Position numbers and translations under genes: made by a program | Shown: piece by piece, positions 481-50,690 of the stretch | Numbering within the stretch: position 1 is the stretch's first letter | How the letters are laid out: each line of letters begins with the position of its first letter | Notes under the pieces: model-generated | Seen by the model: only the letters and a program-made list of their open reading frames with translations | The model's database searches: none | Told to the model about the DNA's origin: nothing | Assembly (NCBI GenBank): GCA_964470025.1 | Contig: CAYXZR010000003.1 | Span: 1-55,874, forward strand | Length of the DNA stretch: 55,874 bases | Reading direction: 5' to 3' | From: an uncultured Gammaproteobacteria bacterium | GTDB lineage: Bacteria > Patescibacteriota > Patescibacteriia > Buchananbacterales > UBA6539

Positions 481-1395
481 ATGTTTTTCAAAAACGCAAT
501 CATTTACTCATTTACAGAACCGTTCAACAAGTCAGTTGCCGAAGTTGAAGATGCGCTGACTAAATTTAGCTTTAAGCCATGCCTAAAAACTGAGTTTTCA
601 TCTACTGGATGGACGCCAGCATTGCACCCTGACGCAAATGTGCTTGTTCATTCATCATATGGTTACCTAATGGTTTGCCTAAAAACTCAAGAGAAAGTTA
701 TTCCGTCTGCTTCAATAAAAGAATTGCTAGACGAAAAACTCAAAGAAATTGAGCAAGCAGAAGATCGCAAAGTCAAAGGCAAAGAGAAACAAAACCTAAA
801 AGAAGAATTGATCCACTCGCTATTGCCAACGGCATTGACTAAGTCAAAGCATGTTCGTGCAATTATCGATACAACCAATGGTTATGTAATGGTTGAAAGT
901 TCAAGCTATGGCCAAGCAGAAAATTTGCTGACCTACCTGCGAAAATCACTAGGCTCGTTGCCAGTAGTGCCGCTAGAAACAAATGGCGCGATTTGCCTTA
1001 CCTTTGACGACTGGATGAAAGGCAACAACCCAAGTGACTTTACCATTGGGACAGAGGCAATATTGAAAGATTTTGCTGAGGATGAAGGAACAATCAACTG
1101 TAAAAACTTGGCATTGGATTCAGAAGATATTCAAAGTCATTTAAATAATGGTAAGCATGTGGTTCAGTTAAAAATTGAGTGGGACGAAAAGCTATCTTGT
1201 GTGTTAGACGCTGGCCTTGTTGTGAAGCGCATTAAATTTAGTGATGTAATTAAAGAGCAAAACGAAGATATATGCCAAGACGACAAGCTCGCTCGCCTAG
1301 ATGCTGATTTCACGCTAATGGCGTGCGAGCTATCTAACTTTGCAAACCGATTGGTTGAGTTGTTTGGAAAGAAAGGTGTTAGTGGTGAAAGCTAA
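481..1395 (+). CDS. rdgC: Recombination-associated protein RdgC
   Basis: 304 aa. MFFKN... N-terminus, LRKSLGSLPVVPL block and QNEDI...DADF C-terminal block match my memory of E. coli RdgC along the full length. Confidence 0.9.
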   Translation: MFFKNAIIYSFTEPFNKSVAEVEDALTKFSFKPCLKTEFSSTGWTPALHPDANVLVHSSYGYLMVCLKTQEKVIPSASIKELLDEKLKEIEQAEDRKVKGKEKQNLKEELIHSLLPTALTKSKHVRAIIDTTNGYVMVESSSYGQAENLLTYLRKSLGSLPVVPLETNGAICLTFDDWMKGNNPSDFTIGTEAILKDFAEDEGTINCKNLALDSEDIQSHLNNGKHVVQLKIEWDEKLSCVLDAGLVVKRIKFSDVIKEQNEDICQDDKLARLDADFTLMACELSNFANRLVELFGKKGVSGES

Positions 1396-2558: not shown

Positions 2559-2789
2559 TTGCCAGCTATATCAATTGCTATTGTATTCATATTGGCTTTA
2601 CTTGTAGGTGACCACAATGCCACGCTTGGCATGTGGGTTGCTATCATTGGCCTTGGTGTTACCGTGCATATATTTAAACATTCTAAACATGAATGGATAG
2701 ATAAATTCTACACAGGTGTATTTGGCTTTATTGTCATTGCTGGCGGGGCTGGCCTAGTCCTTGGCCTTATAGGAAATGCTATTCATTAA
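2559..2789 (+). CDS. Small membrane protein candidate (76 aa, about 3 hydrophobic segments)
   Basis: ISIAIVFILALLV, MWVAIIGLGVTVHIF, GVFGFIVIAGGAGLVLGLIG. TTG start. The 3' end overlaps the 3' end of the giant gene by 11 nt. Confidence 0.45.
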   Translation: MPAISIAIVFILALLVGDHNATLGMWVAIIGLGVTVHIFKHSKHEWIDKFYTGVFGFIVIAGGAGLVLGLIGNAIH

Positions 2790-5700
2790 GTGCGCGATAC
2801 TCAAGAATGATACGCTTGAAAATCGCGTTTTTCTTACGCTCAATATCATCTAGTAATTGATCTTTTTTATCCTGAGAATAATTACTATGCTTGCCAATGA
2901 TATTTCGCTGTCTGTTTAGCTGGTTAATTTTATACATGGCGCGATTAGCAATTTTTCTAAACTGCAGTGGTGCCTTGCTATCTTCCAGCAACTCCTTAAC
3001 CGTATCTTGATCTTGTTCCGCAATCGCGTCTTTGTATGCGTTGTAAGCTCCGCTAATATCACCCATCATGTCGTAAAACTGCTTAGAGTAATAACCGCTA
3101 GAAACTTCATCATGCTTAACAAATTTACGAATTAGAGCTAAATCATCCAGTTCGTTAACCTTGAATTCACCATTACCCGTTACCGCTGCGGCACTGTTAG
3201 ATAGTAAATCGGCCGCACCTAGTAAGTACATACCAAGCGTACCCAAATAACCTTGGGTTAAATGCTCTATTTTCTTTGGACTAAAGCCGAACGCCTCACC
3301 CAATGCTTTGGCCGTTTCACTCGTATAAATACTATAACGATCTTCTGGTCGCTTGAATTGATCACCCATGCCTTCAATTGGACCATCAAAGAAAAAGCTA
3401 TGATTCATGTACGACTCAAGACCCGGCTTAATAACTTGTGGTATCGGGTTCATTGCCAATGTTTCCGTAATGCCGTGCATTAAAGACTTGCGTAAATCAT
3501 CTGCTGTTTGGTTGCCGCTGGCAAAATTAAACATGCGCTCTGGCACTGTGCCAAAAACAACACCCAATTCAAACGGTTTAGGTACTCGAATATGCGTGTC
3601 ACCTAAAAAGAAATGCCAGTTTGCGTCCTTGTCCCAATCCTGCAAATCTTCGTAGCGTTCATCATCACTATTCAGCAAGGCCAAACCTAAGCTAAATGCA
3701 GCAACTTTGGAGCCTTTGATTAGTAGCTCTTTGCTAAAAACTTTAAGTAATTGATCGTTACCTTGCGCTTTACTTGACCGATACAGTTTGTATAAGCCCT
3801 GCATACGTGCGTTAAAAAACGGCAGTACATCAATAAAAAACTGCATCATCTTAAAGTTGCCCTGCAAGCTAAAATCCATAAAATCTTTAGCTTCAAATGC
3901 TGCAACCTTGGCGCTTTTACCTGCTTCTTTGGCTCTGCTATAAGTAGATGCTCTATTCGCATTTTCCATAGCATCTGCAACACTGCGGTATTTCTCGAAC
4001 AACTCCCCTGTGCTTTTGGCAATACTACCAATGTATTTATCTATTTCGCTTTTGCTCAAGCCTTTTTTGCGTAATGCTCGTCTAATTTGCTGAGCGGCTT
4101 TCTCTGGATCATTCGCATGAACATACCCACCTTGAAAACTAGCCCCTGCAAACATTAAATCTAATGTTGCTTCATCATTCGCCCAAGTCTGCTTGGCACC
4201 TATGTATGAATCTTTACCGAATTTAAATCCATCTTTGTTTATCATCCAGCCATGAACCGAATCACGAATAAAGTTTCGTAAAATAAAATCAGGTGACAAG
4301 GTAACGCCAGTTGTTAATAGGCGCTTAGCTGCTCGGCTAATTTTCATTAATGGGTTATCATCACGTTTCATGGTCAATTGCGTTAATGCTCGCATAAGAG
4401 ATGCGTCTTGCACTTTGTACCATTTGTCTTTGCCGTTAACGCGAATTTCCACATATTCAGACTTACCATATTGCCGCGCCTTGCGTTCAGCTTGTTTCTC
4501 AAACATATTTAAACTGGCTTCTTGCATAAAGCTAGAACCACTCAGGTTTTCAGCAACTTCAACCATAGCTTTATTTTTCATTGATGCTTCAATAAGCGTG
4601 GCTTGTCTTTGCATAATGTTAGATAAAATATCTTTGGTTGCTTGCTTACCACCTTTGAGCTTACGAAGGTTGCCAGTTTGGTTGGCAATACCTTTTTTAC
4701 TCATAGGACCCGACAAAACAGAATCGACATCTAATTCACCTTCTTCTTGCTCGCGGAAAAATGGCACATACCATTCTTCATCAAAGTTACTTCGAGCGTC
4801 AGAATCAACAAGACCAGCCTCTTGAGCTAAATCTAACGTTGCTGAATTGATTTTGTTGTATTCTGCCTTAATTTCATCGAATAACGCTTCATTTCCTTTA
4901 TTTAGAGCTTTAAGCGCGTCAATTTCATCTTGGTTAAGGTTGTTTTCTCTGCCTTCTTGCATAAGCTTATCAGCGCGGTTACCACCCATCCAAGCAAGCC
5001 AGTTGTTTAGCTGCGTTTCATCAAGCTTGCCCAACACTTCAAGTAAGCCTTTTGTATTGTCTTTGCGAGCAACAACGCCATCTTTCCACTGAGGCGCACC
5101 AAAAAACATAACGCCATGCAGTACATCACTCACGCCAGTTGATAACCTGGCACTTATATAGCCCGATTTCTCTGGTGATATATTCAAACTATCTTCGGCT
5201 TTTTTAATACCGTAAAGCGAGTCGAAAACGCCCTCTGTGGCACGTTCCTTAAACTTAGTGAAGTTGTCTTTTGTTAGATGAGACTTAATTGATGAAGGTT
5301 TTAATTTATCTAAAATGCTAGATATATCTGTTTCACCAAGACCTAGCTTGTCCATGCCAGAACGCGCAGGCTCAGCAGACTCGGCCAAATTGAATTTAAG
5401 GCTTTTTCCGTTTGGTTTGGAGTTGTTATTCTCGCGTTTGGTTTTAAGTGACTCGCTCATTTTATAAACCATCAAACGCATATCTGCACGGCTCATTTCA
5501 GCGCGAGTTAACCCAAGCTTAACCATTATCTTATGAACAGCTGATAATAGTTTTTGATAGTATCTATCAAGCAAATTCATTTTGTCGTGCGATATTTTGG
5601 CAAGAAATTCTTCGGCCTTATCAACTTCCGATTCATGGCCATACAATCTATCTATTCGCGCCCAAGCTTCTTTAATCGACTTCTTAGGTGATTTGCGAGT

Positions 5701-8700
5701 ATCCATAATCGCCAACAATAGAGCTTGTTGGTGAATGGGAGGCAAGCCTAAAATGCCTTTATGCACTAAGATTTCCTCTTGCAGCGTAGCGCGTAAATCA
5801 TCCATGCTTCTGTGGTTCTGCGGAAAAATATATAAAGTGTCTGTATCTCGGCCATACGCACCTTTAACATATCCAATTTTATCAATTGAATATTCAGCGC
5901 CTAGCACATCAGCTTGATCTTTATCCGCAATCACAACTTTCGTATTACCCGCGCCTTGGTATTCCTTCATAAACTTGTGTAATGCAAGTTTAGCTGCTCG
6001 ATGGCTTATACCTTTTGGTGGGGCATCTTTAGCTTTATTGAAGGCAAGTGATTCAGCATCAGCAGACCGCATGGATAAAGCAGAAATAAACGCATCCCTA
6101 TCATCCTTGCTTTTAAACGTATATGTTGGCGTCCCTTGTTTTTCCCCGCCATCTTTTGGCGTGTAAAAGCGTCTAAGGGCAGCTTTGATATAATAACCAC
6201 CGTTATCTTTCGCAATGGAATTTATATCGCTATATTCATCTCCCATATCGCCTTCAAAATTAACCACAAAAAGATCATCATCAGTTTTGGTGTGTTTTGA
6301 ATCCATAGTGTAGCCAACAAGATCAGGGTTTTCTCGCGAGGCTTTAAATGTGCCATTCGGCACACTCGCCACATCTGGCATCAAGTCTCTATACTTTATG
6401 CCGGAATCATTAATCATGGCCGCTATTTCATTAGCAAAATCTTCTGCGCTATCTTCATTTTTAAAGCTAAAAGTGTATCCATCAGATCGTTCTTCATTAA
6501 AACCATCATACTCTCTAGCAATGTCCATGATACCTTCTCGGTTTTCAGACGCGAAATCATGGAAACTCTTTTTAATTGAAACTTCTGTGCTGAATTTTTT
6601 GTTTCTAACAACGGAATAGCGCTTAAAATCAACCTCTGGCTTTTCTGGTCTATCCCTATCTGGCAAATCCATATTTTCAATACGATTGAAAAATTCGTCT
6701 ATTGAGTAATCATCTCGTAAATTGGTTTCTTCGTGCTGAATTACATCATGGCCTTTTTCTAGTTTATCTAAAACAACCACTTTTGAGCTAACACTTGTCC
6801 CAGCATTCTCAAAAGTTGATCTAGGCATAGTAATGGACTTTGTTAGCTGAATTTGCTTTTCGTGTTCATCTAAGAACTTGTCAAAGTTTTTACTTGCATT
6901 TCCACCATGCGGAATAAGCGCCACAATTCGACCGCCAAAAGCCAAATGCTTAACCGCTTTAGACAAGTGTTCCATAGCAGTCTTACCACCAACGCCATAA
7001 GGTGGATTCATTACAATGCCTTCAAACTTGTTTATCAAAGGCATTTTTAAAAAGTCGCCTTTTTTAGCGTTGCCATTGAATACCAATTGAAGTTTATTGA
7101 TTAAATTAGGTGAATCTTCAATAGCCTTATTAATGGTGTCAGAGGGGAAAAATCTAGCAATAGCACCATGACCGCCGCTAGGCTCTAACAGTCTGTCACC
7201 TGGGGCAGCTTGCAACCACTCAACCATTTTCAGACCTAAAGGCTCAGGCGTGGCAAAATAATCAACCCCCTCGCGCTGATCGCGTCTTTTATTGTTTTTT
7301 AGAACACCATAATAATAGGCTTTAGCCTTATCGAATGGGCTTAACTTTTGCCTTTCCGCCATTGCTTTGGCACCATCAAATTGAATGGCATCAGGGTTGT
7401 CTATTAATTCACTATACCCATCAACAAATGAGTCTTTTATTCCCCTAGCTTCATCACCCAATGCTAGGTTGTCAGCCGTATCTGCTCTAGTCGCTATCTT
7501 GCTAGCAAAAGCGTATTCTTCAAAGCGAGTGCCAGTTGTCATATAAACTATGGCCGTGTCGCTTTTAACACCTACCCGAACTGGCCTACCTTCAATCTGA
7601 ATTGACTGAACAGGCTTGAATGGTAAGCCCATATTAATTAATACCCTTGGCTCGTCACCGTGTACGTCATGTAAGCTTAGCCCTGCACTACCAGCATCTT
7701 GTTGAACAACAATAACCTTAACCTTTCCACCTTTCTCATTGAAAGCGTCTTTATTGGCTATTCGCTGTTTAGCAGGCACCTTGCCGTTGTAAAATACAAC
7801 CGAGTCACCAAATGCGTCTTGAAATACATCAAGCGGCCTTTCTAACCCGCCAAAGTTAATATCTAATATTCCACGGTTAGCTCTCTCTAATATCGACAGC
7901 TCATTTTGAACTTCTGGATTGCTGTTGGAATATAACCTTGATAGTGGATTGCTAGAACCGCCAACGTTGTAAGAATGAAATATAATAACCTTCTTACCCT
8001 GTTCAATCATTTTCTTAGCAACTTTAACCGTTTCTGGCGCTTTAATTGCCTCAGTGAATTTAACCTGCTCGGTAAAATCGAATAGATTCCGTAATGCCGT
8101 ACTTAGGTTGGGGTAAAGACTCTCGTCTTTATCATTTTTAGAATCATTAATAATGCTTATCGCATCATCTAGTTTCTTACCTGCAGCAGATTCAACTATG
8201 TAGAAGTTTCGCCCAAAGTCATTGTCTATTTCTATAAATCGGCCGCTTAACACGCCTTGTTTTTTCATGTTTTCGTAGAAATTTCGTTCCATTAGTCCAC
8301 TATTAACCTTTCCGCTTGGCGTGGTTAGTCTGTGGTTTCTCCATCTATAACCAAAATTTTCTATGTAAAATGCGTTGTGCCCATGACCTGCATTCTCATA
8401 CCCGCCTTCAAACTCTGGACCATAATCAGAATAGTTGAATAACAAACCTTCCGCATAATCTAAATTTTTGACGTAAGCAAATGGTGAAGCAGATAGCATT
8501 AACACATTGGTATTATCGTTTGGTTTAGCCTTTGCTTCCTTTTTAAATTGCTCCGCTTTTTCTCTAATCTTGGTGTTTAGTTTATCCTGTTCTGTTTGAG
8601 TTTCACTTTGAGCTTTAGCGCTGGCATCTTCCACGCTTAATCCAGCGCTTAGATACGTTTTATTTAGACTCTGGTACAGATCATTAATTTTTGCTTGCTC

Positions 8701-11700
8701 GTCTGCAAAAAATAAATAAGCTTTGTGATTAAACTCACTATGCCCAATAACCGATCTTAATGACTTCAATGCCTTACTCGGTATTGCTTGCGCTCCTTGC
8801 ATTAAGGTTTGAGATTCATCAGCTATGATTAAGTCCCAATCTCGCTCTGTTACCAATGGCTTGCTATCACCAAATGTAACGTAAGAGGCTATTGTTATTT
8901 CCTTACCGCGATCACCTCTATTTGTTGGCGATTCATCGCCAATTTTATAAATATCTAAATCAAAATGATCTTTACCTGTTTTAATCCACTGATTACTAAT
9001 CCCATCACTTAGCGATAAAATCAGAATATTCTTTTTACCTTGCTGCTTAGCTCTAGCAATAGCCGCCAAACCATTAAATGTTTTACCCGTCCCCGTACCA
9101 TTGGTCAGTAGAAAGCCACGCCCTTTTTTAACGCCATTTAAGCCATTAAAGCGATTTTCTATTTTAACCATATCATCAGCTTGCTTATCAGTAAGCATTG
9201 GTAGCGACTGTTTTACACTGGATAAATCACCGGCTTTAAACTTGGTTGCTAGATTAGGTTTAGGAATTGGCTTTGCTTGACTGGTGTTTGACGGTTGCTT
9301 GACTGGTGTTGTGTCTGATTGTTGGGTTATTCGCTCAATATCACTAACCATCTTACTGTAAGCGATAGCGGCTTTCTGTGAGTTTGTTTTTCTACCCCAT
9401 GAGCTATCATTAACGAAATCTCGGTACGCTATGGCTAGTGCACCACCACCTTTTAATTCAAGCTTTATTTTATCTAAAATAACATCCTTATCTTCCTTAA
9501 TCTCAACTATAGCGGCTTCAAATTCATCCTTTGTTAGTTTGTTTTCTAGTAATCTTTCGTGTGTACTGTAAGGTGTTTTTTTGTATGTTAATGGCTCTTT
9601 GATGTAGCCACCTTGCCCATTACCAGAAATGAAACCTTCCACATTTTTTTCGGTTCGTTTTTTAGAACGCTCGTATGACAAGGAAGTGATTTTTCTGTCC
9701 GTGGCCTCATTTCCACCTATAACATCACTCCTTTTTGTTTCATCCACCGTCCGACTATCAGATTGTGGTTCTTGCTCTGGCTTTGCGTTTTCTTCAAGAA
9801 TAGCGTCAACATCTGCTGCTCTCACTTCTCTAGGTGAGTCCATAGAATCAGCAACATCATCACTTACACCATATCTATCAGGATCGTTAGCTATGGCACC
9901 ATAAGATGATTTAAGATACGGCTTAATATCATCTTTTGGAATACCGTTTTGCATAGCAAGTTTGACAAGTTTATTTGCCCACTGTGCAAACTTAACCACA
10001 CCTTTAGCCGCCAATACCGCACCAATTTTGGAAACAATGAAGGCTATCTTTGGATCAATACCTGAGTTGAATGTTCCTTTTTGCTCCTTGAAAGCGGCTT
10101 TAAGTTCACCAAATAAGTCGGACAATTCATCATTAAGCTTTTGTTCTGCTGTGTCTAGTTTGCTAGGTTTTGGATCGGGTGCTGCGGCTGAGCCCTTTAT
10201 ATTGTTGGCTTTTAGTGGCTTATCTACAGGCTTATCAACCGTTTCTGTGGATTGTTCTATTTCATCATTGCCAAATAGACCAGACTGGTTTTCGTTTTCA
10301 AAAAACGAGTTGGTCTGCGCGTCTCCTTCGGTGATGCTGCCATCTGTTACTGCGCGCAATTCTTGGGGGTTGGGTTGCTCAATTTCATTTATTTCTGACT
10401 TAATTTGTGAAACCAAATTAGGGTTGGTGTGCCAGCTATCCCACGCCTTAGCTTCGTCAGATAATGCTTGTGTTCGCTTAATTAAAGACTGAGGATCTTT
10501 AACATCAACGCCTTCCTCTTTGGCTAACTTCGGATTTTTAGCCGCTCCGCGAATTGAATTTAATCTAGTTCTTAGCTCTCGTTGCTTTTTAGCTGCAACC
10601 TTGGCCATATCTTCTGCTTCACGCATAGCAGAATCATCAAAGCCAAATAAATCGCCATTATCGGCTTTCTGTGAATTAGTTTTGCTTATCGCTGATACAG
10701 CATGAATTAAGTTTTTAGCAAAAGCGATAGATCGCTGATCATCAGCTATCGCTTTTATTCCAAGTACCTGTAACTTCTCGTTGTTTGGCGCTGCGTCCGC
10801 TATTGCTTCTGCTGCCTGCGAGCTGATTCTTCCTGACCTCTGCGCTTCAATTGTCTCATTAACCGCACTATTTGCGATTTTGTATGCGGTTCGTCCTGTT
10901 GCTCGGTCGAGTAACCCGTATTGCTTGGCTTCTGATTCGGTGATTCCGTCTTGCTTGAATAATTCGACATAATCTTCTACTTGCCCTTTATCTTCTCTAA
11001 TGTTGAGTATTGCATCTAGGCGCTTTCCATCATCAGCTGTAAAGCCCTTGGATTCAAAGTGGTACTGTGCTGGAATATTGCTTATTCCGCTGCGCTTAGC
11101 CAGGTCAAACCTATGACGACCAGTGATAATTTCTTTTCGCCCATCTTTTCTAACCCAAACTTGAATAGGCGACATTCCAACAGGATCAAATTTACCAGTT
11201 AGTGGCTCAACAACACCATCGCTATCACTGCCTGACTTAAATTGTGGAATATCAGAAGATAAAGATAATTCATTTACTGGCGTTTGTATAACATCAACAT
11301 TACTTACAGTGTCATTAACTGCAATCTTTGAATCTTCTATTGCACTGTCATCTGACGGTGATCGGTTTCCGCCAAGTATACCTTCTCTGCTAGATACTTC
11401 ATTTCCTTCGGGAATATCGTTACTTCTGGCTGTTCGTTCTCGCTCGCCATCAACAAATAAAGCGCCATCATTTCCGACTCCGTAATTATCTTGTCCTGCT
11501 CCAATAGACTCAGAAACGGAATCATCTTGTAGTCGGGTATTTTCAATTGCTGACCAGACATAACCACCCTTAGTTTTTTGAATGTCAATTTGTGCGCCTG
11601 ATTTTACAGCCGCTTTGTACGGTGCGCTTAGCTTTAAAGCCCGCTCACTTCTGAATGGATGACCTGACGACATACCACGCCACTTGCGTTCATCAGCTGT

Positions 11701-13230
11701 AAATATAACGTTTTTATCAGTCAACGCTAATGGCGCACGTTTAAGCTTATCTGCGTTTTCCTGTGCTTGCTGCATTGGTCGGTTATCTTGACCATAAATA
11801 ACGCCAGTGTGTTTGTCAGGTAGACCACGTTGCTCGTAATACTCCGCATCATCAATAATCTGGCCTTTGCCTAACAAACCATCTGGCGAACTTGAACGCA
11901 TTGGTTCTTGTTGAATCAATTCACCTTCGTACTGATAAGGCGCTACATCATAGCCTGTTGCTGTTTCGCCAGGTATAGTCTGTAAATTTGTTTGCTTAGG
12001 AATAACAGCAGGCACATTGCTAGGGCGAATATTATTATTGATTAAATCATCACCCATTGCGCCAAATTGATTTTGACTTTCAACGCCATTTTGACGCGCA
12101 TACGCTGGCACATCATAGTTAGGTGCTGTGGTTTGGTTTACACGTTGAATTTGTTCTTCCGATAAAGTAACAGCATTGCTAGAAGGGGCGCGATTAACAC
12201 TTTCATCATCAAGTGTTTGATCTTCATTGCCAACATTAGGGTTGGTTAAATCTATTTGGTCGCCTTCACTGGCTTTTGGTTTATGTAATTCGCCTGTTAA
12301 AGTTCCGTAAGTTCCCTTAATCGCACCACCAGTTAAGCCGCCTATCACACCCTCAGTCAGCATTGTGTTACCAAGGCCATCACTTGGGTTAATACTTGGA
12401 TCTGCGTTATCACGTAAAATAGCATTGCTTCTATAATGCTCAGTACCGCCTTGCAATGACTCCGTTGAACCTTCAACAGCAAAACCTTTTGCAGCATTTG
12501 GCAATACAGAGCGTGCGCCTCTAGTCGTTTTGCCAAGCACGCCAAGCACAGAACTGTCACCAATTGCAGATAGGCCAATATTAGCCGCCCACATTGCTGG
12601 ATCTATCTCAGCTTCATAGCTTGCCTTATCCGCCAATTGCTTACGAGCTAAATCTAACTTAATCGCATCACTTGCGTTTGCAAATTCAGGACTGTTATCA
12701 ATCGATAGAAACAGCTCTTTGTATACTGGTGAATTAGCCAGCGTTTCAAAATCCGTATTTAAAACTTGTTCTTTAACACCGTGCGCTGTTTGTCCTTGAG
12801 CAGAAGCACCACCAGACAAACCCAAGCCGCCCATTTGTGTAGCAGTTGTCCCAGCTTTCAATCGGCCAATAGTTGATATAGCTTTACCAGCCCCAAGACC
12901 AAGCGGCAAAGTAGTTGCCATTTGCCCAACACCAGACGACAAGTGAAGCCCCACACCTCGCGCCCCCATATCAGCTAAACTATCGGCTTGCATAGCCCTT
13001 TGGCTTTCGTCTGTCATTTCTAAAACCTGCTCTCTTGCAGGTTCAAAGAAATTTTTCTCGGCAAAATCTTCGTTAATAAAGTTAGCAACACCGCCAGCCG
13101 CATTCAAAGCGCCCATTTGGAAGGCATCTACTAGATCGCCCCCGTATGAGGTGTTTTGGTTGGCTTTTAGTTCGTTTTCTTTATCAATGCTGGCATACAT
13201 TGCCTGTCTTTGTTCTTGGGTAAGTGGCAT
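2779..13230 (-). CDS. Giant polyvalent protein, 3,483 aa (ParB-like + SF2/SNF2-type helicase + N6-adenine DNA methyltransferase + unassigned N- and C-terminal regions); DarB-like, probably virion-delivered
   Basis: Uninterrupted 10,452-nt ORF. Motifs read directly: IITGRHRFDLAKRSG, GTGTGKT, IIADESQ, QIEGRPVRVG, LLEPSGGHG, IVMNPPYG. It is the last gene of the late operon. Confidence 0.95.
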   Translation of the reverse strand: MPLTQEQRQAMYASIDKENELKANQNTSYGGDLVDAFQMGALNAAGGVANFINEDFAEKNFFEPAREQVLEMTDESQRAMQADSLADMGARGVGLHLSSGVGQMATTLPLGLGAGKAISTIGRLKAGTTATQMGGLGLSGGASAQGQTAHGVKEQVLNTDFETLANSPVYKELFLSIDNSPEFANASDAIKLDLARKQLADKASYEAEIDPAMWAANIGLSAIGDSSVLGVLGKTTRGARSVLPNAAKGFAVEGSTESLQGGTEHYRSNAILRDNADPSINPSDGLGNTMLTEGVIGGLTGGAIKGTYGTLTGELHKPKASEGDQIDLTNPNVGNEDQTLDDESVNRAPSSNAVTLSEEQIQRVNQTTAPNYDVPAYARQNGVESQNQFGAMGDDLINNNIRPSNVPAVIPKQTNLQTIPGETATGYDVAPYQYEGELIQQEPMRSSSPDGLLGKGQIIDDAEYYEQRGLPDKHTGVIYGQDNRPMQQAQENADKLKRAPLALTDKNVIFTADERKWRGMSSGHPFRSERALKLSAPYKAAVKSGAQIDIQKTKGGYVWSAIENTRLQDDSVSESIGAGQDNYGVGNDGALFVDGERERTARSNDIPEGNEVSSREGILGGNRSPSDDSAIEDSKIAVNDTVSNVDVIQTPVNELSLSSDIPQFKSGSDSDGVVEPLTGKFDPVGMSPIQVWVRKDGRKEIITGRHRFDLAKRSGISNIPAQYHFESKGFTADDGKRLDAILNIREDKGQVEDYVELFKQDGITESEAKQYGLLDRATGRTAYKIANSAVNETIEAQRSGRISSQAAEAIADAAPNNEKLQVLGIKAIADDQRSIAFAKNLIHAVSAISKTNSQKADNGDLFGFDDSAMREAEDMAKVAAKKQRELRTRLNSIRGAAKNPKLAKEEGVDVKDPQSLIKRTQALSDEAKAWDSWHTNPNLVSQIKSEINEIEQPNPQELRAVTDGSITEGDAQTNSFFENENQSGLFGNDEIEQSTETVDKPVDKPLKANNIKGSAAAPDPKPSKLDTAEQKLNDELSDLFGELKAAFKEQKGTFNSGIDPKIAFIVSKIGAVLAAKGVVKFAQWANKLVKLAMQNGIPKDDIKPYLKSSYGAIANDPDRYGVSDDVADSMDSPREVRAADVDAILEENAKPEQEPQSDSRTVDETKRSDVIGGNEATDRKITSLSYERSKKRTEKNVEGFISGNGQGGYIKEPLTYKKTPYSTHERLLENKLTKDEFEAAIVEIKEDKDVILDKIKLELKGGGALAIAYRDFVNDSSWGRKTNSQKAAIAYSKMVSDIERITQQSDTTPVKQPSNTSQAKPIPKPNLATKFKAGDLSSVKQSLPMLTDKQADDMVKIENRFNGLNGVKKGRGFLLTNGTGTGKTFNGLAAIARAKQQGKKNILILSLSDGISNQWIKTGKDHFDLDIYKIGDESPTNRGDRGKEITIASYVTFGDSKPLVTERDWDLIIADESQTLMQGAQAIPSKALKSLRSVIGHSEFNHKAYLFFADEQAKINDLYQSLNKTYLSAGLSVEDASAKAQSETQTEQDKLNTKIREKAEQFKKEAKAKPNDNTNVLMLSASPFAYVKNLDYAEGLLFNYSDYGPEFEGGYENAGHGHNAFYIENFGYRWRNHRLTTPSGKVNSGLMERNFYENMKKQGVLSGRFIEIDNDFGRNFYIVESAAGKKLDDAISIINDSKNDKDESLYPNLSTALRNLFDFTEQVKFTEAIKAPETVKVAKKMIEQGKKVIIFHSYNVGGSSNPLSRLYSNSNPEVQNELSILERANRGILDINFGGLERPLDVFQDAFGDSVVFYNGKVPAKQRIANKDAFNEKGGKVKVIVVQQDAGSAGLSLHDVHGDEPRVLINMGLPFKPVQSIQIEGRPVRVGVKSDTAIVYMTTGTRFEEYAFASKIATRADTADNLALGDEARGIKDSFVDGYSELIDNPDAIQFDGAKAMAERQKLSPFDKAKAYYYGVLKNNKRRDQREGVDYFATPEPLGLKMVEWLQAAPGDRLLEPSGGHGAIARFFPSDTINKAIEDSPNLINKLQLVFNGNAKKGDFLKMPLINKFEGIVMNPPYGVGGKTAMEHLSKAVKHLAFGGRIVALIPHGGNASKNFDKFLDEHEKQIQLTKSITMPRSTFENAGTSVSSKVVVLDKLEKGHDVIQHEETNLRDDYSIDEFFNRIENMDLPDRDRPEKPEVDFKRYSVVRNKKFSTEVSIKKSFHDFASENREGIMDIAREYDGFNEERSDGYTFSFKNEDSAEDFANEIAAMINDSGIKYRDLMPDVASVPNGTFKASRENPDLVGYTMDSKHTKTDDDLFVVNFEGDMGDEYSDINSIAKDNGGYYIKAALRRFYTPKDGGEKQGTPTYTFKSKDDRDAFISALSMRSADAESLAFNKAKDAPPKGISHRAAKLALHKFMKEYQGAGNTKVVIADKDQADVLGAEYSIDKIGYVKGAYGRDTDTLYIFPQNHRSMDDLRATLQEEILVHKGILGLPPIHQQALLLAIMDTRKSPKKSIKEAWARIDRLYGHESEVDKAEEFLAKISHDKMNLLDRYYQKLLSAVHKIMVKLGLTRAEMSRADMRLMVYKMSESLKTKRENNNSKPNGKSLKFNLAESAEPARSGMDKLGLGETDISSILDKLKPSSIKSHLTKDNFTKFKERATEGVFDSLYGIKKAEDSLNISPEKSGYISARLSTGVSDVLHGVMFFGAPQWKDGVVARKDNTKGLLEVLGKLDETQLNNWLAWMGGNRADKLMQEGRENNLNQDEIDALKALNKGNEALFDEIKAEYNKINSATLDLAQEAGLVDSDARSNFDEEWYVPFFREQEEGELDVDSVLSGPMSKKGIANQTGNLRKLKGGKQATKDILSNIMQRQATLIEASMKNKAMVEVAENLSGSSFMQEASLNMFEKQAERKARQYGKSEYVEIRVNGKDKWYKVQDASLMRALTQLTMKRDDNPLMKISRAAKRLLTTGVTLSPDFILRNFIRDSVHGWMINKDGFKFGKDSYIGAKQTWANDEATLDLMFAGASFQGGYVHANDPEKAAQQIRRALRKKGLSKSEIDKYIGSIAKSTGELFEKYRSVADAMENANRASTYSRAKEAGKSAKVAAFEAKDFMDFSLQGNFKMMQFFIDVLPFFNARMQGLYKLYRSSKAQGNDQLLKVFSKELLIKGSKVAAFSLGLALLNSDDERYEDLQDWDKDANWHFFLGDTHIRVPKPFELGVVFGTVPERMFNFASGNQTADDLRKSLMHGITETLAMNPIPQVIKPGLESYMNHSFFFDGPIEGMGDQFKRPEDRYSIYTSETAKALGEAFGFSPKKIEHLTQGYLGTLGMYLLGAADLLSNSAAAVTGNGEFKVNELDDLALIRKFVKHDEVSSGYYSKQFYDMMGDISGAYNAYKDAIAEQDQDTVKELLEDSKAPLQFRKIANRAMYKINQLNRQRNIIGKHSNYSQDKKDQLLDDIERKKNAIFKRIILEYRALNE
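6780..7290 (-). other. Domain: SAM-dependent N6-adenine DNA methyltransferase (motif I then motif IV, gamma-like order)
   Basis: EPSGGHGA encoded at 7162..7185. NPPY encoded at 6997..7008 (aa 2075-2078). Confidence 0.8.
7530..9180 (-). other. Domain: SF2 (SNF2/DEAD-like) helicase/translocase
   Basis: Walker A GTGTGKT at 9079..9099. Motif II DESQ at 8809..8820. C-terminal lobe VIIFHSYN..., VVQQDAGSAGLSLHD, QIEGRPVRVG near 7570..7990. Confidence 0.8.
10950..11260 (-). other. Domain: ParB/Srx-like (ParB N-terminal nuclease-like fold)
   Basis: PIQVWVRKDGRKEIITGRHRFDLAKRSGISNIPAQ. GRHR is encoded at 11110..11121 (aa about 704). Confidence 0.6.
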
Positions 13231-13241
13231 TTTATAAGCTC

Positions 13242-14600
13242 TTAAAGTCTGTTGTTGGCTAAAAATGGATTATTGGCATTTGGATCAGGTAAATTTAATC
13301 CTCGCAAATTTTGGGCAATTTGCGTGGTTTGTTGTGGTGTAAATCCAGATGCGGACTGGCTTTGTTGCGTTTTGCTTAATTGAGCAATAATGTCTTGTAA
13401 GCTGTCGTTTCTTCCATTGGCGCGGGATGCGTTAAGCTCGCTTATAGCCTCCAACGCTAACTGCTCATCACCGTTCGCAAGCGCTAAAGCATCTTGTTTT
13501 AGCTTTTGGCTATTTGCTTGATCACCGCTGGGCAAACCCGCCTGTTGAACCAATTGATCATATTGTGCTTGCAAGCCTTGAACTTGCTGTAACACTCGCG
13601 TTTTTTGTTCTTCTGTAACACCAAACTCAGAATTTAAAGACTCGTACAAGTCACCAATATTCTTCTGAATGTCATTAGCAGCAGCTAGTGCATCTTTAGG
13701 GTTTAAGGCGCTTGGTTTTCTGTTAGCTAGTTGTTGTTGAGAAATAACGCCCTGCAAGTGTTTAGCTAAAGTAGCTGTTTTCGCTTTGGCTTGAATATCA
13801 TCAAACGCTTTATCCCAAGGTATAACCATTACACCTGTGCCAGGCTTTGAGTTTCGACCATTGTTCACAAATGATTCGTATGAACTGCCATCATCACGAT
13901 ATGTAACCATTTTAATTTTTACACCATCATCGGTCGGAATTAAACCAGTAATAACGTTTTTGGCAATGGTGCCACCGCCTCTTGCTGGTTGGCCTACAGA
14001 TTTATTTGCCAATCCCTGATAAGTCGCTTGAATATGCTCTAACTTTGGCATAGAGCCATTGGCAAAGCCGTTGCCTATCTCAATTGCCGAATCGGGATAA
14101 TTCAAATGGTTGTACTTGGGTAAGCTTCCATACTTACTTAAAAAACCTTGGAAATTTTCAGCAACGTTTAACGGTATATTGCTATGTAACTGCCCTGTTT
14201 GTGGATCGATTGAGCTTGTTACAATGCCCTGCCACATAGCATCAGCATCTTTTTCCATCATAGCTTTACTGGTTATTTCGTTGTTTAGCCCGATACCCTT
14301 CATTTTTGCATCATGCTCGGCATCTTGCTGGTCAAATGTTGTTTGCTGGCGATCAACCTGACCTTGGAGTAATTGGGTATTTAAGCCGTAGTTAGTCATT
14401 TGCACACCGTGGCGCTCTGCGTTCTGTGCATCTAAAGCACTCTGGCGATTGCGATTGTAATCACGTTCTTCCAAATAACGTTGATCTAAAGCGCTTTGCC
14501 TAGCCTGTTGATCATCGTATTGCTGCTTTTGAAAGTCGCGTTGCTGCATATCACGAACCAAGCCGTAACCAGTTTGTAAACCTTGAATAACACCTGCCAT
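13242..14600 (-). CDS. Q/N/A-rich protein, 452 aa (internal-virion/ejection protein candidate)
   Basis: ATG 14600 shares TAATG with the upstream stop. The track start 14654 is a non-ATG extension. No enzymatic motif seen. Function is inferred from position only. Confidence 0.65.
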   Translation of the reverse strand: MAGVIQGLQTGYGLVRDMQQRDFQKQQYDDQQARQSALDQRYLEERDYNRNRQSALDAQNAERHGVQMTNYGLNTQLLQGQVDRQQTTFDQQDAEHDAKMKGIGLNNEITSKAMMEKDADAMWQGIVTSSIDPQTGQLHSNIPLNVAENFQGFLSKYGSLPKYNHLNYPDSAIEIGNGFANGSMPKLEHIQATYQGLANKSVGQPARGGGTIAKNVITGLIPTDDGVKIKMVTYRDDGSSYESFVNNGRNSKPGTGVMVIPWDKAFDDIQAKAKTATLAKHLQGVISQQQLANRKPSALNPKDALAAANDIQKNIGDLYESLNSEFGVTEEQKTRVLQQVQGLQAQYDQLVQQAGLPSGDQANSQKLKQDALALANGDEQLALEAISELNASRANGRNDSLQDIIAQLSKTQQSQSASGFTPQQTTQIAQNLRGLNLPDPNANNPFLANNRL

Positions 14601-14839
14601 TAGAATAGCTCCGTTAATGCGTAACCTGCGACAGCACCAATGGCCGCGCCCCAAGGACCACCCACCTGTGCACCAATCATGGCGCCGCTTGTTGTGCCAC
14701 TCACTTTCTCTGTTTTCTCAGCTCGCTTTAGCTGTTCATTCTGCATATTGCGCTGCGTTTCTTGTTGGGCGCTTTGCCCCATCATTTGCATGGCTTGCTG
14801 CCGTGTTTGTGTACCACGACCTAAAATACCGTATCCCAT
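14600..14839 (-). CDS. Small glycine-zipper membrane protein (79 aa)
   Basis: C-terminal GAMIGAQVGGPWGAAIGAVAGYAL. Tightly packed between neighbouring genes. Confidence 0.7.
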   Translation of the reverse strand: MGYGILGRGTQTRQQAMQMMGQSAQQETQRNMQNEQLKRAEKTEKVSGTTSGAMIGAQVGGPWGAAIGAVAGYALTELF

Positions 14840-14840
14840 G

Positions 14841-15437
14841 TTAGCCCCCGTTTTTTAATTGTTCAGACAGCACAGAGCGGCCGCTAGAACCTGTTAAAAT
14901 TGAGTCCTGCAAGTCACTTGTTGCCACGCGCATATTGTTTTTAGCTTGAGCAATGCCCAAACCTGCACTTAACTGACTTTGTCTATTTTGTGATGCTTGT
15001 TGAAGTGCGCTAGGTGCAATACCAAAGCGTGAATTTCTAACGGCTTCTGATTGCATTCGCGACTTTTGAGCTGAATTAGCATTAGCACTAATTCGAGATA
15101 ACTGCTTATTTAGCATTTCGGGATTATCAATTAAACCTACTAGCTGCTCGTCATATGGCTTAAATCGCCCCAAATAATCTGAATATTCGGAGCGAATCAA
15201 TCCAGCCATTACTTTTGAAGCGTATTTCTTATCGTTTGGATCTACGTTTGGGGGCGCTTGATAGTGCAAATCACCATATTCAAACGATACATCATGGTTG
15301 GGAACTAAGGTATTACCTGGTACATTGCCAGAGTTGGTTGGCGCGCTAGGTATGCCATAGTCAGAGTCGGGCCCCGTATAGTTAGGAATATTTAAATCTA
15401 CGCTGTAATAGGCTTCGGGATTCCAGTTAGAACTCAT
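14841..15437 (-). CDS. Hypothetical virion protein candidate (198 aa)
   Basis: ATG 15437 lies 2 nt after the upstream stop, preceded by GGGGG. S/N/Q-rich C-terminal half. Confidence 0.7.
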   Translation of the reverse strand: MSSNWNPEAYYSVDLNIPNYTGPDSDYGIPSAPTNSGNVPGNTLVPNHDVSFEYGDLHYQAPPNVDPNDKKYASKVMAGLIRSEYSDYLGRFKPYDEQLVGLIDNPEMLNKQLSRISANANSAQKSRMQSEAVRNSRFGIAPSALQQASQNRQSQLSAGLGIAQAKNNMRVATSDLQDSILTGSSGRSVLSEQLKNGG

Positions 15438-15439
15438 AG

Positions 15440-16081
15440 TTAACCCCCATTCCACGTATTCATAATGTCATCACTATAATCACTTGCATTGCTGCCGATA
15501 ACACCGCTCTGCGTAGTCGTTTTATTAGGGTTTGTATAGTGCGCTAATCCAGCACCTACAGCACTTCCAGCAACCTCACCCATAAGTTGACTATTTTGCG
15601 CTTTGTTTAACGCTGAATTTCTAGCGTAAGCTGCCGAATTAGATGCAATGTCACTCATGCCTGCAATGGCATCAGCTTCTTTACCAGCACCAATTGCCGA
15701 TATAGCTTTAAGCCCACCCACAAAACGCTCATTTTGCGTGGACAGTGTTCTTGACGTTGTATCAACCTTCGCATTTTCCATTGCGTTGTGTAGCGCACTT
15801 TGACGCGCTTGAAACTTGCCGCTGTTGGGATTTATACCGCCACGAAAAGTGTTGGCGTTATCCGCATTAATAGCAGACTGAAACGCCATGTTGGTTGATG
15901 TTGCGCCTTGATTTGACGCTTGCTGAAACTGCTTATCGCTTCCCATGCGATTAACTTTTTGCATAAAATTATTTTCAGCTGGCTTAAAAACTTGCTGATA
16001 ATCGTTCCATTTTTTAAGTGCTACTTCGGCATACGCCTTCTGTTCTGGCGTTTCTTTTACTTCTGAGTCACCACCACCCAT
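15440..16081 (-). CDS. Hypothetical virion protein candidate (213 aa), N/S/A/G-rich
   Basis: ORF tightly coupled to its neighbours. Compositionally similar to the next two genes. Confidence 0.7.
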   Translation of the reverse strand: MGGGDSEVKETPEQKAYAEVALKKWNDYQQVFKPAENNFMQKVNRMGSDKQFQQASNQGATSTNMAFQSAINADNANTFRGGINPNSGKFQARQSALHNAMENAKVDTTSRTLSTQNERFVGGLKAISAIGAGKEADAIAGMSDIASNSAAYARNSALNKAQNSQLMGEVAGSAVGAGLAHYTNPNKTTTQSGVIGSNASDYSDDIMNTWNGG

Positions 16082-16083
16082 AA

Positions 16084-16452
16084 TTAGACCTCTTTGTTAA
16101 TGGTAAAGGTGTCTTTGTGTCGGCTAATTACATCAAACCCAAGTTGACGCGATAGCTTCACAACACCTTTACGCTTTGTTTTAAATTGAATGAATTTGGC
16201 ATCAGCAGACCTAGCTAAACTAACCAGATAATCAATGCCCTCTTTGAATGGAATTTTTGTCGATGTTGCAAACTCAACAAACAAACCTAACTCACCGTCA
16301 TAGTTAAACTTCGGATGGTAAATGCAGTAGTAAAATTCGCCCTGAATAACATTGGCTTTGTTTTGCTTGGGTAGGTTTAGAGCTCTTTTTATTTCGATTC
16401 GGTTACCAAAATAAGCTTTAAGTAAGGTTTTTCTTAGTAAATGCTTTTGCAT
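16084..16452 (-). CDS. Hypothetical protein (122 aa from ATG 16452; alternative TTG 16467)
   Basis: First gene after the 16466..16498 hairpin. No confident motif (only a weak GNAT-like ...LSRQLGFDVI tail). Confidence 0.6.
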   Translation of the reverse strand: MQKHLLRKTLLKAYFGNRIEIKRALNLPKQNKANVIQGEFYYCIYHPKFNYDGELGLFVEFATSTKIPFKEGIDYLVSLARSADAKFIQFKTKRKGVVKLSRQLGFDVISRHKDTFTINKEV

Positions 16453-16465
16453 ATCCCATGAACGC

Positions 16466-16498
16466 AAAAAGCCCCTGCATTGCTGCGAGGGGCTTTTA
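16466..16498 (-). terminator. Intrinsic terminator (minus strand)
   Basis: Minus strand reads AGCCCCTcgcagcaatgcAGGGGCTTTTTG: 7-bp GC-rich stem followed by a T-run. Confidence 0.7.
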
Positions 16499-43543: not shown

Positions 43544-43747
43544 CTAAGCAGCCTCTTGATTGTTGTTAATCCAGCTTTCAACCTCGCTTGCTTTCCAGCG
43601 TCTTGTGCGGGTATTTGGGCGAATTGGCTTAGGAAAATTACCGCCTTTAACGTAATTGAATAAAGTGCGGTCTGATATTCCGCACATAACAGCCACTTGC
43701 TTAGCGTTAAGTAGTGGCTCTTTTGCTAGTTCGTGAATATTGTTCAT
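43544..43747 (-). CDS. AlpA/excisionase-family DNA-binding protein (67 aa)
   Basis: LLNAKQVAVMCGISDRTLFNYVKGGNFPKPIR...RRWKASEVESWI. Confidence 0.7.
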   Translation of the reverse strand: MNNIHELAKEPLLNAKQVAVMCGISDRTLFNYVKGGNFPKPIRPNTRTRRWKASEVESWINNNQEAA

Positions 43748-44274
43748 GCTGCTTCTCCCAGTGACTTTTGCTTAATAACAGAGTTACCAGCGGCTTTTAT
43801 AATGTCGCGCTCAACAAAAGTAATATTTGTGCGAGAGCTAAGGCTTTTTGCATCGAATACACAGATACAAGAGCCGGCGGGAACACCTGTCACTTCTTTT
43901 TGGGTTAATGGATTAATGAAATTAACGCGACCTTCTGAAATAAACATGATGTGATTAGCTGCGTTATTTGGAAACCAGCCTTCACTAGGTAAAGCAGGGA
44001 TTAGCATTACAGTTGTAACGCCTTTTTTGCGCTGCTCGATTGCTTTATTAACAAAGGCTTCTTTCATGCCGCGGCTGTATGGCGGGTTACAAAAAGCAAC
44101 CGTACCTTCACCGCCCCAGTCTTGAGTTAATGCGCTATTTGCTTTAGTGAAGTATTGAGCGCACCAATGGAATTTGTCGCTAGCTGCTGCGTCTAGGTTG
44201 AATCCATAAATCGAATCCAACCAGAAGTACAACCAATTTGGCGTTTGCCATGTGTCTCTGTCGAAATCAGACAT
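43744..44274 (-). CDS. Phage Dam-family DNA N6-adenine methyltransferase (176 aa)
   Basis: DTWQTPNWLYFWL...FNLDAAAS...FCNPPYSRG matches the PF05869-type pattern from memory. Confidence 0.85.
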   Translation of the reverse strand: MSDFDRDTWQTPNWLYFWLDSIYGFNLDAAASDKFHWCAQYFTKANSALTQDWGGEGTVAFCNPPYSRGMKEAFVNKAIEQRKKGVTTVMLIPALPSEGWFPNNAANHIMFISEGRVNFINPLTQKEVTGVPAGSCICVFDAKSLSSRTNITFVERDIIKAAGNSVIKQKSLGEAA

Positions 44275-46183: not shown

Positions 46184-46184
46184 A

Positions 46185-50598: not shown

Positions 50599-50690
50599 GT
50601 TTTGCAATTTACCACTAAGTAAAATAAGTTTACTTATCAAATAAACTTATATATGCTTATATTTATCTATATTAAAACAGGTTTACCTAT
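50599..50690. promoter_or_regulatory. cI/cro divergent control region (OR-like)
   Basis: ATAAGTTTACTTAT at 50624..50637 (both half-sites perfect). Partial sites at 50637..50650 and 50677..50690. AT-rich with several -10-like hexamers. Confidence 0.65.

Follow-up and report, generated by a model that had tools for sequence, protein, structure and literature searches.

The window analyzed here is the whole 55,874-nt contig CAYXZR010000003.1, and its minus strand carries at positions 2779..13230 a gene for a giant protein of a prophage or phage. The open reading frame (ORF) is uninterrupted over 10,452 of the 55,874 nt, or 18.7% of the window, a length and share that agreed with the initial annotation when recomputed. 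It starts at an ATG, has no internal stops and encodes 3,483 amino acids (aa), with a mass of 385 kDa and an isoelectric point of 5.75. We consider it fairly likely that the product serves a temperate podophage as its large ejection protein, a counterpart of T7 gp16 and N4 gp50 that combines a delivery frame with a cargo bay. What we report in favor of this reading is the identity of the domains, the exchange of modules between relatives, conserved motifs, synteny, the absence of cysteine and homology to N4, while presence in the virion and a requirement for infection would carry over by analogy from related proteins.

Prophages of two species, Gayadomonas joobiniege and Catenovulum sediminis, encode the closest relatives of the giant protein. 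One of them, the Gayadomonas protein P0002 (3,638 aa), aligns colinearly with it from end to end, at 42-61% identity. The proteins P0003 (Catenovulum) and P0004 (metagenomic) have only two regions in common with it, aa ~17-635 at 50-59% identity and aa 2395-3483 at 69-82%; their centers hold PBECR3 or an inorganic pyrophosphatase (InPase), plus LPD5 and LPD1. Since the ends are common and the centers differ, the architecture can be described as an N-module, an exchangeable cargo and a C-terminal part, in which, as judged from these alignments, the enzymes occupy the swappable center at aa ~636-2394. The features of the gene are as follows.

2779..13230, minus strand: whole gene, encoding a cysteine-free large polyvalent protein, last in the late/structural operon.
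11326..13230, minus strand: N-module, aa 1-635, 44-59% identical with P0002, P0003 and P0004 and with matches to phrog_616/26030/20690.
12286..12828, minus strand: N-module core, aa ~135-315, homologous to residues 291-445 of the N4 virion RNA polymerase (vRNAP).
10381..11313, minus strand: ParB-like module, aa ~640-950, made of a ParB N-terminal domain, a helix-turn-helix-like domain and a helical extension.
9781..10188, minus strand: small conserved linker domain L, aa ~1015-1150.
7501..9243, minus strand: SWI2/SNF2-type (Strawberry-notch-like) superfamily 2 (SF2) ATPase/translocase, aa ~1330-1910, assigned by Pfam and by a profile against the PDB.
6751..7308, minus strand: gamma-class (EcoKI/TaqI-like) N6-adenine DNA methyltransferase domain, aa ~1975-2160, assigned by profile and motifs.
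6049..6750, minus strand: region X, aa 2161-2394, of which X1 (2161-2300) is poorly conserved and X2 (~2305-2385) conserved.
5356..6048, minus strand: zincin-like HExxxH domain, aa ~2395-2625, delimited by alignments with relatives.
2782..5313, minus strand: C-module, aa 2640-3483, mostly alpha-helical, ~850 aa, containing Pfam LPD38.

The residues that the initial annotation had left unassigned, about 1,700 in number, turned out to be conserved family modules. The fusion itself, which had been put forward as possibly new, is also found elsewhere, as the order ParB-helicase-methylase-LPD38 recurs in at least six other clusters (P0002, P0059, P0074, P0077, P0140 and P0187).

The N-module provides the link to phage N4. 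A profile of its core (aa 130-370, 10 sequences), searched against 177,635 PDB sequences, retrieved residues 291-445 of N4 vRNAP with an expect value (E) of 4e-4. Because the core is rich in glycine and alanine, a composition artifact was tested in three ways. The real N4 region scored 31.9 bits, compared with a maximum of 9.3 in ~2,000 shuffles; a reverse phmmer search with the N4 segment recovered several related giants by their N-termini (aa ~140-390), with scores of 27-39 bits; and hhalign of the core against N4 gave a probability of 94% and a P of 1e-7 over 156 columns. The Gly/Ala richness first noticed at the extreme N-terminus agrees with the composition, and glycine-zipper stretches lie at aa ~82-135 and ~294-306. 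The core is also related to giants of the Stx-phage gp35/gp47 type (30% identity, E 1e-16 to 4e-17). Three regions were compared with N4 vRNAP, namely the N-module, the zincin-like domain and the C-module, and only the N-module segment was significantly similar. The zincin-like domain gave a weak motif-on-motif hhalign match (P 0.002) to the one HELVH in the C-terminal domain of N4 vRNAP, a correspondence that is suggestive only. No RNA polymerase family was found among the Pfam and PHROGs matches of the giant protein. In N4, membrane association and injection have been linked to the N-terminal domain and encapsidation to the helical C-terminal domain, and gp50 is the last of three co-encoded ejection proteins, gp52, gp51 and gp50 (PMC13492108; PMC13434306).

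The amino acid composition of the giant protein points in the same direction. It contains no cysteine in 3,483 aa, where ~28 would be expected, as opposed to 0.81% cysteine in the 30 other ORFs of the window. Together with the four products encoded directly upstream (2779..16081, minus strand), this makes ~4,400 residues free of cysteine. Most relatives have 0 or 1 cysteine per 2,100-5,800 residues, and 83 of the 115 giants recovered through the ParB-like module have none. PTXU04 gp25, Vibrio phage 1.232.O gp28 and N4 vRNAP (0/3,500) are cysteine-free too, and P1 DarB has nine. In the papers checked for it, the word cysteine was absent. Such a composition fits a loosely folded passage across the periplasm, and the absence of cysteine may be a usable marker of tail-ejected proteins.

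At the other end of the protein, Pfam LPD38 (PF18857) was matched at 5e-44 with 151 bits, against a cut-off of 27, although this match covers ~160 residues only (aa 3190-3346, positions 3193..3663) of the C-module. Fifty relatives were scored for the position of the module, and in nearly all of them it forms the extreme C-terminus. Its AlphaFold2 (AF2) model is mostly helical, with a mean predicted local distance difference test score (pLDDT) of 76 and a predicted template-modeling score (pTM) of 0.74, and it resembles the C-terminal chunks of other phage polyvalent proteins, including that of PTXU04, at template-modeling (TM) scores of 0.8+. By sequence, the giant protein is a member of the LPD38 family and, as first proposed, a phage-type polyvalent protein, with several unrelated domains and a place among the late virion genes.

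The preceding zincin-like domain can be compared with the HEXXXH metallopeptidase clade of polyvalent proteins described by Iyer et al. 2017 (PMC5512222), which is defined by His-Glu-x-x-x-His plus a distal Glu. The full motif is present in 9 of 13 aligned relatives (for example, HEIIVH in PTXU04 gp25 and HELVVH in Vibrio phage 1.232.O). In the giant protein the corresponding sequence is QEEILVH (aa 2484-2490), in which the first His, a metal-binding residue, is replaced by Glu. Invariant positions are the catalytic Glu 2486, His 2490 and, more distally, Glu 2541. The His-to-Glu change was found only in the Catenovulum/Gayadomonas clade. The heptapeptide had been noted before as a degenerate HExxH; the alignment shows that the motif of the relatives is HExxxH. 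Neither Pfam nor a profile searched against PDB sequences gave a match for this domain.

Evidence on where such proteins act comes from the LPD38-type giants to which we liken the protein, namely Bcep22 gp75/JC1 gp69 (labeled DarB-like), phi24B gp47, Stx2 phage 86 gp35, PTXU04 gp25 and Vibrio phage 1.232.O gp28. All have in common with it the giant size, the position as last or near-last structural gene and a C-terminal HExxxH domain followed by the LPD38 module. JC1 gp69, a Bcep22-like protein of 4,515 aa with LPD38, was among the best-detected virion proteins, with 51 unique peptides (PMC9144972). The gp47 of phi24B (LPD5, LPD1, MuF-C, LPD38) was abundant by mass spectrometry and invisible in cryo-electron microscopy, and its authors proposed it to be an ejection protein. 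Stx2 phage 86 gp35 has the domain set of phi24B gp47 and shares the N-module and the HExxxH region with the protein described here; Stx-phage records also matched a C-terminal query. PTXU04 gp25 (2,197 aa), whose sole Pfam domain is LPD38, aligns with aa 2369-3481 at E 6e-103, and when it is knocked down the phage plates with strongly reduced efficiency on a laboratory host (PMC11879866). Since gp25 has no recognizable enzyme and is nevertheless required, the frame seems, by analogy, to serve infection itself and not counter-defense alone. The purely accessory counter-defense role that had been suggested is thus at odds with a relative that has the C-terminal ~1,100 aa in common and is needed for plating.

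The cargo distinguishes these proteins from one another. JC1 carries a lytic transglycosylase, a methylase placed before the helicase, and LPD3; the Stx phages, whose giants also have the N-module (and, in Stx2 phage 86, the same upstream cassette), carry LPD5, LPD1 and MuF_C; and PTXU04 has no recognizable cargo. Vibrio phage 1.232.O gp28 (3,292 aa) is colinear with aa 1333-3481 at 30% identity. The protein described here differs from them in its ParB-like module without a Pfam model and in the His-to-Glu change in the HExxxH motif. Overall, the suggestion that the protein is delivered with the DNA stands as the best reading, given the relatives found in virions, the conserved synteny, the lack of cysteine and the homology to the N-terminal part of N4 vRNAP.

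The first cargo domain is the ParB-like module. An AF2 model built from 16 sequences (pLDDT 82, pTM 0.71) was compared with solved structures by Foldseek and matched Noc (7nfu), ParB (6t1f/7bnr), KorB (8qa9) and Spo0J (1vz0) with a probability of 1.0 and E of 1e-6 to 8e-4. The alignment extends over ~210 residues and spans the N-terminal nucleotide-binding-type domain and the adjacent helix-turn-helix domain. Target-normalized TM scores reached ~0.6 for Noc, Caulobacter ParB and Spo0J and were 0.33-0.40 for many other ParB/Noc/KorB chains; weaker matches were obtained to sulfiredoxin (Srx). The motif GRHR (aa 704-707, positions 11110..11121, as annotated before) is invariant among the relatives, where it forms G69 R70 H71 R72 of the aligned segment. 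The model therefore confirms a predicted ParB/Srx-superfamily fold with a conserved arginine motif. Compared with chromosomal and plasmid ParB, Noc and KorB, the predicted fold is the same and an arginine-rich motif occupies the box II position. Canonical CTP-binding ParBs carry GERR at this motif. The module described here differs from the CTP-dependent clamps of the ParB/Noc/KorB type in having GRHR and in sitting inside a giant protein.

Sequence searches alone found little of this. Pfam ParB_N was matched only at E 0.1, a profile of the module gave no match against PDB sequences, and ddrB-ParB (PF18763) was matched neither in the giant protein (E up to 5) nor in short relatives, with no significant BLASTP similarity to P1 DdrB; PF18763 does occur in two relatives, P0007 and P0012, though elsewhere in the protein. 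No Pfam model covers the module, even in short carriers. An exhaustive HMMER search nevertheless found the module (~310 aa) in 1,507 cluster representatives, 567 of them at E < 1e-30. The best 150 carriers are 38-77% identical and are mostly proteins of 2,000-6,000 aa. On these searches, the ParB-like module is a large uncatalogued domain family.

The two remaining enzymes were recognized by motifs and profiles. In the helicase, GTGTGKT (aa 1378-1384, positions 9079..9099), DESQ (aa 1471-1474, positions 8809..8820) and QIEGRPVRVG (aa 1878-1887) were recovered where they had been annotated, and motifs I (GTGTGKT), II (DESQ), III (SASP) and VI (QIEGRPVR) are intact and invariant among relatives. 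Pfam matches were ResIII, SNF2-rel and Helicase_C, with SNF2-rel_dom (2.1e-5) just below its curated cut-off; in the relatives, Helicase_C_4 matches were just under or near the curated cut-off. A family profile searched against the PDB matched SsoRad54 (1z63) at 7e-12 and XPB at 1e-5. In P0007, an intein-like insertion (LAGLIDADG_3 and Hom_end, aa 2105-2170) splits the helicase at the Walker A region, and the alignment to P0007 jumps from its residue 1889 to 2241, which places the insertion region at aa ~1890-2240.

The methylase has its motifs in the order FATP (aa 1993-1996, helix cap), EPSGGHG (aa 2016-2022) and NPPY (aa 2075-2078, positions 6997..7008, in agreement with the initial annotation). 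EPSGGHG had been recognized correctly and placed slightly off, at 7162..7185; its recomputed position is 7165..7185. A TP cap, motif I and NPPY form the gamma-class order described for polyvalent proteins (Iyer et al. 2017, PMC5512222). A 14-sequence profile against the PDB matched HsdM (3ufb at 6.6e-7 and 5ybb at 1.6e-5), M.TaqI (3e-5), EcoKI M and BsaXI, and the region matched phrog_6263 at 1.4e-19. Invariant columns are T20 P21, E42 P43 S44 G46 and N101 P102 P103. All three enzyme calls made at the outset are thus borne out, by the Noc/ParB/KorB fold, the SsoRad54 match at 7e-12 and the HsdM/M.TaqI matches at 7e-7 to 3e-5. Because the ParB fold carries an invariant GRHR, the helicase and methylase motifs are invariant and the methylase matches HsdM and TaqI, the three enzymes look active from their sequences.

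Besides these enzymes, the cargo region holds smaller conserved segments. Domain L contains the most hydrophobic helix of the protein, an amphipathic one at aa 1056-1083 (AFIVSKIGAVLAAKGVVKF), and it gave no family or structure match, including Pfam searches on short carriers. The X2 part of region X (6049..6315) has the consensus (S/T)KH(T/S)K..DLFVV...GGYY...F.F...F. Both L and X2 recur in other giants. Region X, including short X2 carriers, gave no Pfam match, and an X2 profile gave none against PDB sequences. Region X is also where two Y.F.FK modules had been reported; there is a single exact match, at aa 2252, and the second reads TYTFKSK. These segments were considered as LPD1 or as internal repeats and rejected (hhalign probability 0.3-5%), as was an assignment of region X to LPD3 by comparison with P0009, in which LPD3 lies elsewhere. 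Pfam searches on cut-out segments at E up to 5 yielded noise plus ParB_N at E 0.1, and single-sequence PDB searches with aa 1300-2200 and aa 610-1300 yielded no match. The linker regions seem, from comparison with the metagenomic relative P0222 (96-97% identical and 172 aa longer), to tolerate changes of length. The stretch after the ParB-like module, aa ~934-1004, aligns at two places of P0222 and may be duplicated there.

The genomic setting agrees with a virion protein. On the minus strand, the late operon encodes in order the small and large terminase, the portal, the major capsid protein, two tail-fiber genes, phrog_511 (internal virion protein), small genes and the giant protein. The annotated position as last gene of its cassette therefore holds for the whole late operon, and the prophages of Catenovulum and Gayadomonas agree in this. 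Relatives of the portal are found in HMO-2011-type podophages and, at a greater distance, in N4-like ones. A terminator scan downstream of the giant gene found none. Directly upstream lies a conserved cassette, as follows.

13242..16467, minus strand: upstream cassette of five genes, with the same order and sizes in relatives and matches to phrog_610/611/596.
16084..16467, minus strand: gene for a 127-aa product, first of the cassette.
15440..16081, minus strand: gene for a 213-aa product without cysteine.
14841..15455, minus strand: gene for a 204-aa product without cysteine.
14600..14839, minus strand: gene for a 79-aa glycine-zipper product without cysteine.
13242..14603, minus strand: gene for a ~453-aa product, without cysteine after start correction.

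Stx2 phage 86 (gp30-gp35) and the prophages of Catenovulum and Gayadomonas have a cassette of the same order and sizes, and homology to the counterparts in relatives was seen for the 79-aa and 453-aa proteins. The last cassette gene had been listed as a 470-aa ORF (13242..14654) with a TTG start. An ATG at 14603 overlaps the stop of the 79-aa ORF (ATGA coupling), and on this arrangement the TTG start is probably wrong and the protein begins at 14603 with ~453 aa. This version agrees with the prophage homologues of 444 and 439 aa and loses both cysteines of the longer one. The 470-aa ORF had no tblastn match among phages and no similarity to N4 gp51; it had a weak one to Stx2 phage 86 gp34 (E 2e-5, in a comparison against six sequences). 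The 79-aa ORF (MGYGILGRG...GGPWGAAIGAVAGYALTELF) ends in a glycine-zipper tail. It has clear homologues in Stx2 phage 86 gp33, annotated as a bacteriocin, and in small genes at the matching place in the Catenovulum and Gayadomonas prophages. In the phi24B study, "a homolog of a bacteriocin" was detected in virions and put aside as a contaminant. Given the conserved synteny, the 79-aa product may be a real small ejection or membrane protein.

Taken as an ejection protein, the giant protein can be compared with N4 gp50 (3,500 aa). The two have in common the giant size, the lack of cysteine, a place at the end of a small-medium-giant set of ejection genes, and a layout of an N-terminal ejection/membrane domain, a central enzyme, a metallopeptidase motif and a large helical C-terminal domain. 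They differ in the cargo, which in N4 is an RNA polymerase, a domain not present here, and in the lifestyle of the phage, N4 being virulent and the phage described here temperate. T7 gp16, a large ejection protein with a lytic transglycosylase domain, is an analogue in function and carries a different cargo; it is the third and largest podophage ejection protein and brings enzymatic activity into the cell (PMC13434306). On this model, a few copies would be packed in the head, pass loosely folded through the tail and enter ahead of or with the DNA. The N-module would form part of a trans-envelope ejection complex and tether the protein at the inner membrane, and the zincin-like domain and LPD38 module would be needed for capsid packing and infectivity. 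Free of cysteine, the protein would escape disulfide trapping in the periplasm. Its cargo would then act on the entering genome: the SNF2-type translocase would move the methylase along the DNA, so that modification precedes host restriction, as proposed for DarB-type dyads, and the ParB-like module would load on, clamp or nick DNA. The cargo most likely consists of DNA-protecting enzymes; what the methylase modifies, an anti-restriction effect and the part played by the ParB-like module are inferred.

Several observations weigh against this explanation. The phage and its protein are known here from genes alone, and the proposed roles of the N- and C-modules lean on analogy with N4. Between the C-module and the C-terminal domain of N4 no similarity could be detected (hhalign probability 0.1%), and no classical transmembrane segment was found in the protein (maximum 19-residue hydropathy 1.62). 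The initial annotation had recommended segment-wise Foldseek, which succeeded for the ParB-like module and matched the C-module to no solved structure (best E 0.6, TM 0.1, in a library to 8 April 2026 in which the presence of full-length N4 vRNAP was unchecked). The absence of the first metal-binding His makes processing by the zincin-like domain doubtful, and with GRHR in place of GERR the ParB-like module may have a chemistry other than that of canonical ParBs. No target-recognition domain is recognizable after the methylase, where region X follows without a family or structure match; NPPY methyltransferases also act on RNA or protein, and the weak Pfam matches of the methylase are to rRNA methylase families (MTS and UPF0020). 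Finally, the PTXU04 knock-down could in principle have had effects beyond gp25.

A broader form of the ejection reading is tentative, and we think it somewhat more likely to be wrong than right. It holds that LPD38-type giants and N4 vRNAP are variants of one ancient podophage ejection chassis, in which an N-terminal membrane/ejectosome domain, a metallopeptidase-type domain and a helical packaging module surround an exchangeable cargo, with near-absent cysteine as hallmark and predictor. The cargo would stay anchored where the genome enters, at the pore, and would methylate it processively during its uptake, and the ParB-like module would be a new nucleotide-switch DNA loader at genome entry.

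Among the explanations that compete with an ejection protein, the one that survives best, though we regard it as unlikely, is an offensive machine in which a ParB-like nuclease and the SNF2 translocase degrade or nick unmethylated host or rival DNA and the methylase marks phage DNA as self, in the manner of a single-chain Type ISP restriction-modification enzyme. Type ISP enzymes combine nuclease, ATPase and gamma methylase in this order in a single chain, which the order found here resembles. Several ParB/Srx-superfamily members have been reported as non-specific DNases or NTPases, and the conserved motifs are kept in all three modules. Host-DNA degradation has also been offered as one option for polyvalent ParB domains (Iyer et al. 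2017, PMC5512222). However, the best fold matches of the module are the DNA-clamping ParB, Noc and KorB and not nucleases, and the profiles match SsoRad54/XPB and HsdM/TaqI, with no Type ISP enzyme among the matches. The three modules do not form an obligate trio either, as 48 of 100 giants have only ParB and 31 have ParB and the C-module, and ~350 aa of linker plus domain L separate ParB from the helicase.

We hold two further explanations to be improbable, and to the same degree. The protein might not be injected at all and instead be a late cytoplasmic enzyme that methylates or remodels progeny DNA before packaging, with flanks that regulate or scaffold it. A late-operon position alone is no proof of packaging, and a separate methylase shows that methylation matters to the phage, but against this reading stand the presence in purified virions of relatives that carry the C-module, the synteny of the cassette with Stx-phage genes, the homology between the N-module and the N-terminal domain of N4, and a lack of cysteine that is common to the injected N4 vRNAP and not to the rest of the proteome. 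The other explanation is that the protein is essentially structural, a trans-envelope conduit or plug whose enzyme-like segments are inactive, decayed passengers. It would account for the frame-only PTXU04 gp25, required for infection without recognizable enzymes, and for the missing metal ligand of the zincin-like domain. Nevertheless, relatives with an overall identity of only 38-52% keep without exception the catalytic residues of the helicase (K of GKT, DE, SA.P and Q.EGR..R), the methylase (TP, EPS.G and NPP) and ParB (GRHR), which is the pattern of purifying selection on activity.

The comparison with P1 DarB, a capsid-packaged anti-restriction protein of 2,255 aa, was made in the initial annotation, which took the pairing of methyltransferase and helicase as its signature. 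Both proteins do have an N6-adenine-type methylase and an SF2/SNF2-like helicase in one polypeptide, but the similarity is remote by BLASTP (methylase E 3e-4, second helicase lobe 2e-3, first lobe 0.29) and the two domains come in the opposite order, with the methylase (aa 88-274) ahead of the helicase (848-1537) in DarB and the helicase (1330-1910) ahead of the methylase (1975-2160) here. DarB also lacks LPD38, an N4-like N-module and a ParB module, and P1 is a myovirus, in which DarB is packaged by a different pathway that depends on DarA and Hdf. The DarB-type dyad has been defined as LPD36-methylase-helicase (Iyer et al. 2017, PMC5512222), an order that does not occur in the giant protein. 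A true DarB orthologue with the same protection against type I restriction is therefore very improbable, since the weak BLASTP matches to methylase and second helicase lobe, and the database label "DarB-like antirestriction" on the homologous region in Serratia phage Parlo and Pseudomonas phage Skulduggery, stand against a reversed order, nine cysteines in DarB and the different LPD36 dyad, so that the architecture already contradicts it. As a model for how the cargo of an ejection protein might act, DarB remains plausible by analogy.

The class to which the protein belongs is already described, so that it is a new member of a catalogued giant-protein family and not a new type. Giant virion-associated polyvalent proteins were catalogued in 2017 (Iyer et al., PMC5512222) and have since been found in Burkholderia and Stx phage virions, and the finding is in this sense ordinary for the field. 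What goes beyond routine is the frame-and-cargo anatomy, the N4 link, the cysteine-free hallmark and the widespread ParB-like module. Kept ends and a swapped middle make delivery separable from payload and show experimenters where to cut. The link between the N-module and N4 vRNAP extends recent work on the N4 ejectosome to larger and more diverse phages, including Stx-converting ones, and the absence of cysteine gives a marker of ejected proteins that is simple and can be tested. The ParB-like module occurs very widely and yet has no Pfam model. Should the cargo indeed protect incoming DNA, a chassis of this kind could deliver chosen enzymes together with a phage genome.

As for the phage itself, the temperate, lambdoid-like setting first described is confirmed by an integrase (38750..40024) and a CI-like repressor (49897..50640); RecT and exonuclease genes are present as well. 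The stand-alone DNA methyltransferase annotated at 43744..44274 is likewise present (phrog_111, 3.7e-61). The giant gene had no megablast match in 50,697 phage records, and the terminase-portal region gave trivial blastn matches only; by these searches, the phage has no close sequenced relative. Because the nearest relatives of the giant protein lie in Gayadomonas joobiniege and Catenovulum sediminis prophages, the sequence points to a marine host of the Alteromonadales type. The window apparently also holds two recombination sets, one a phrog_724 exonuclease on the plus strand (481..1395) and the other a RecT-like annealing protein with an exonuclease VIII-like gene on the minus strand (45335..47051).

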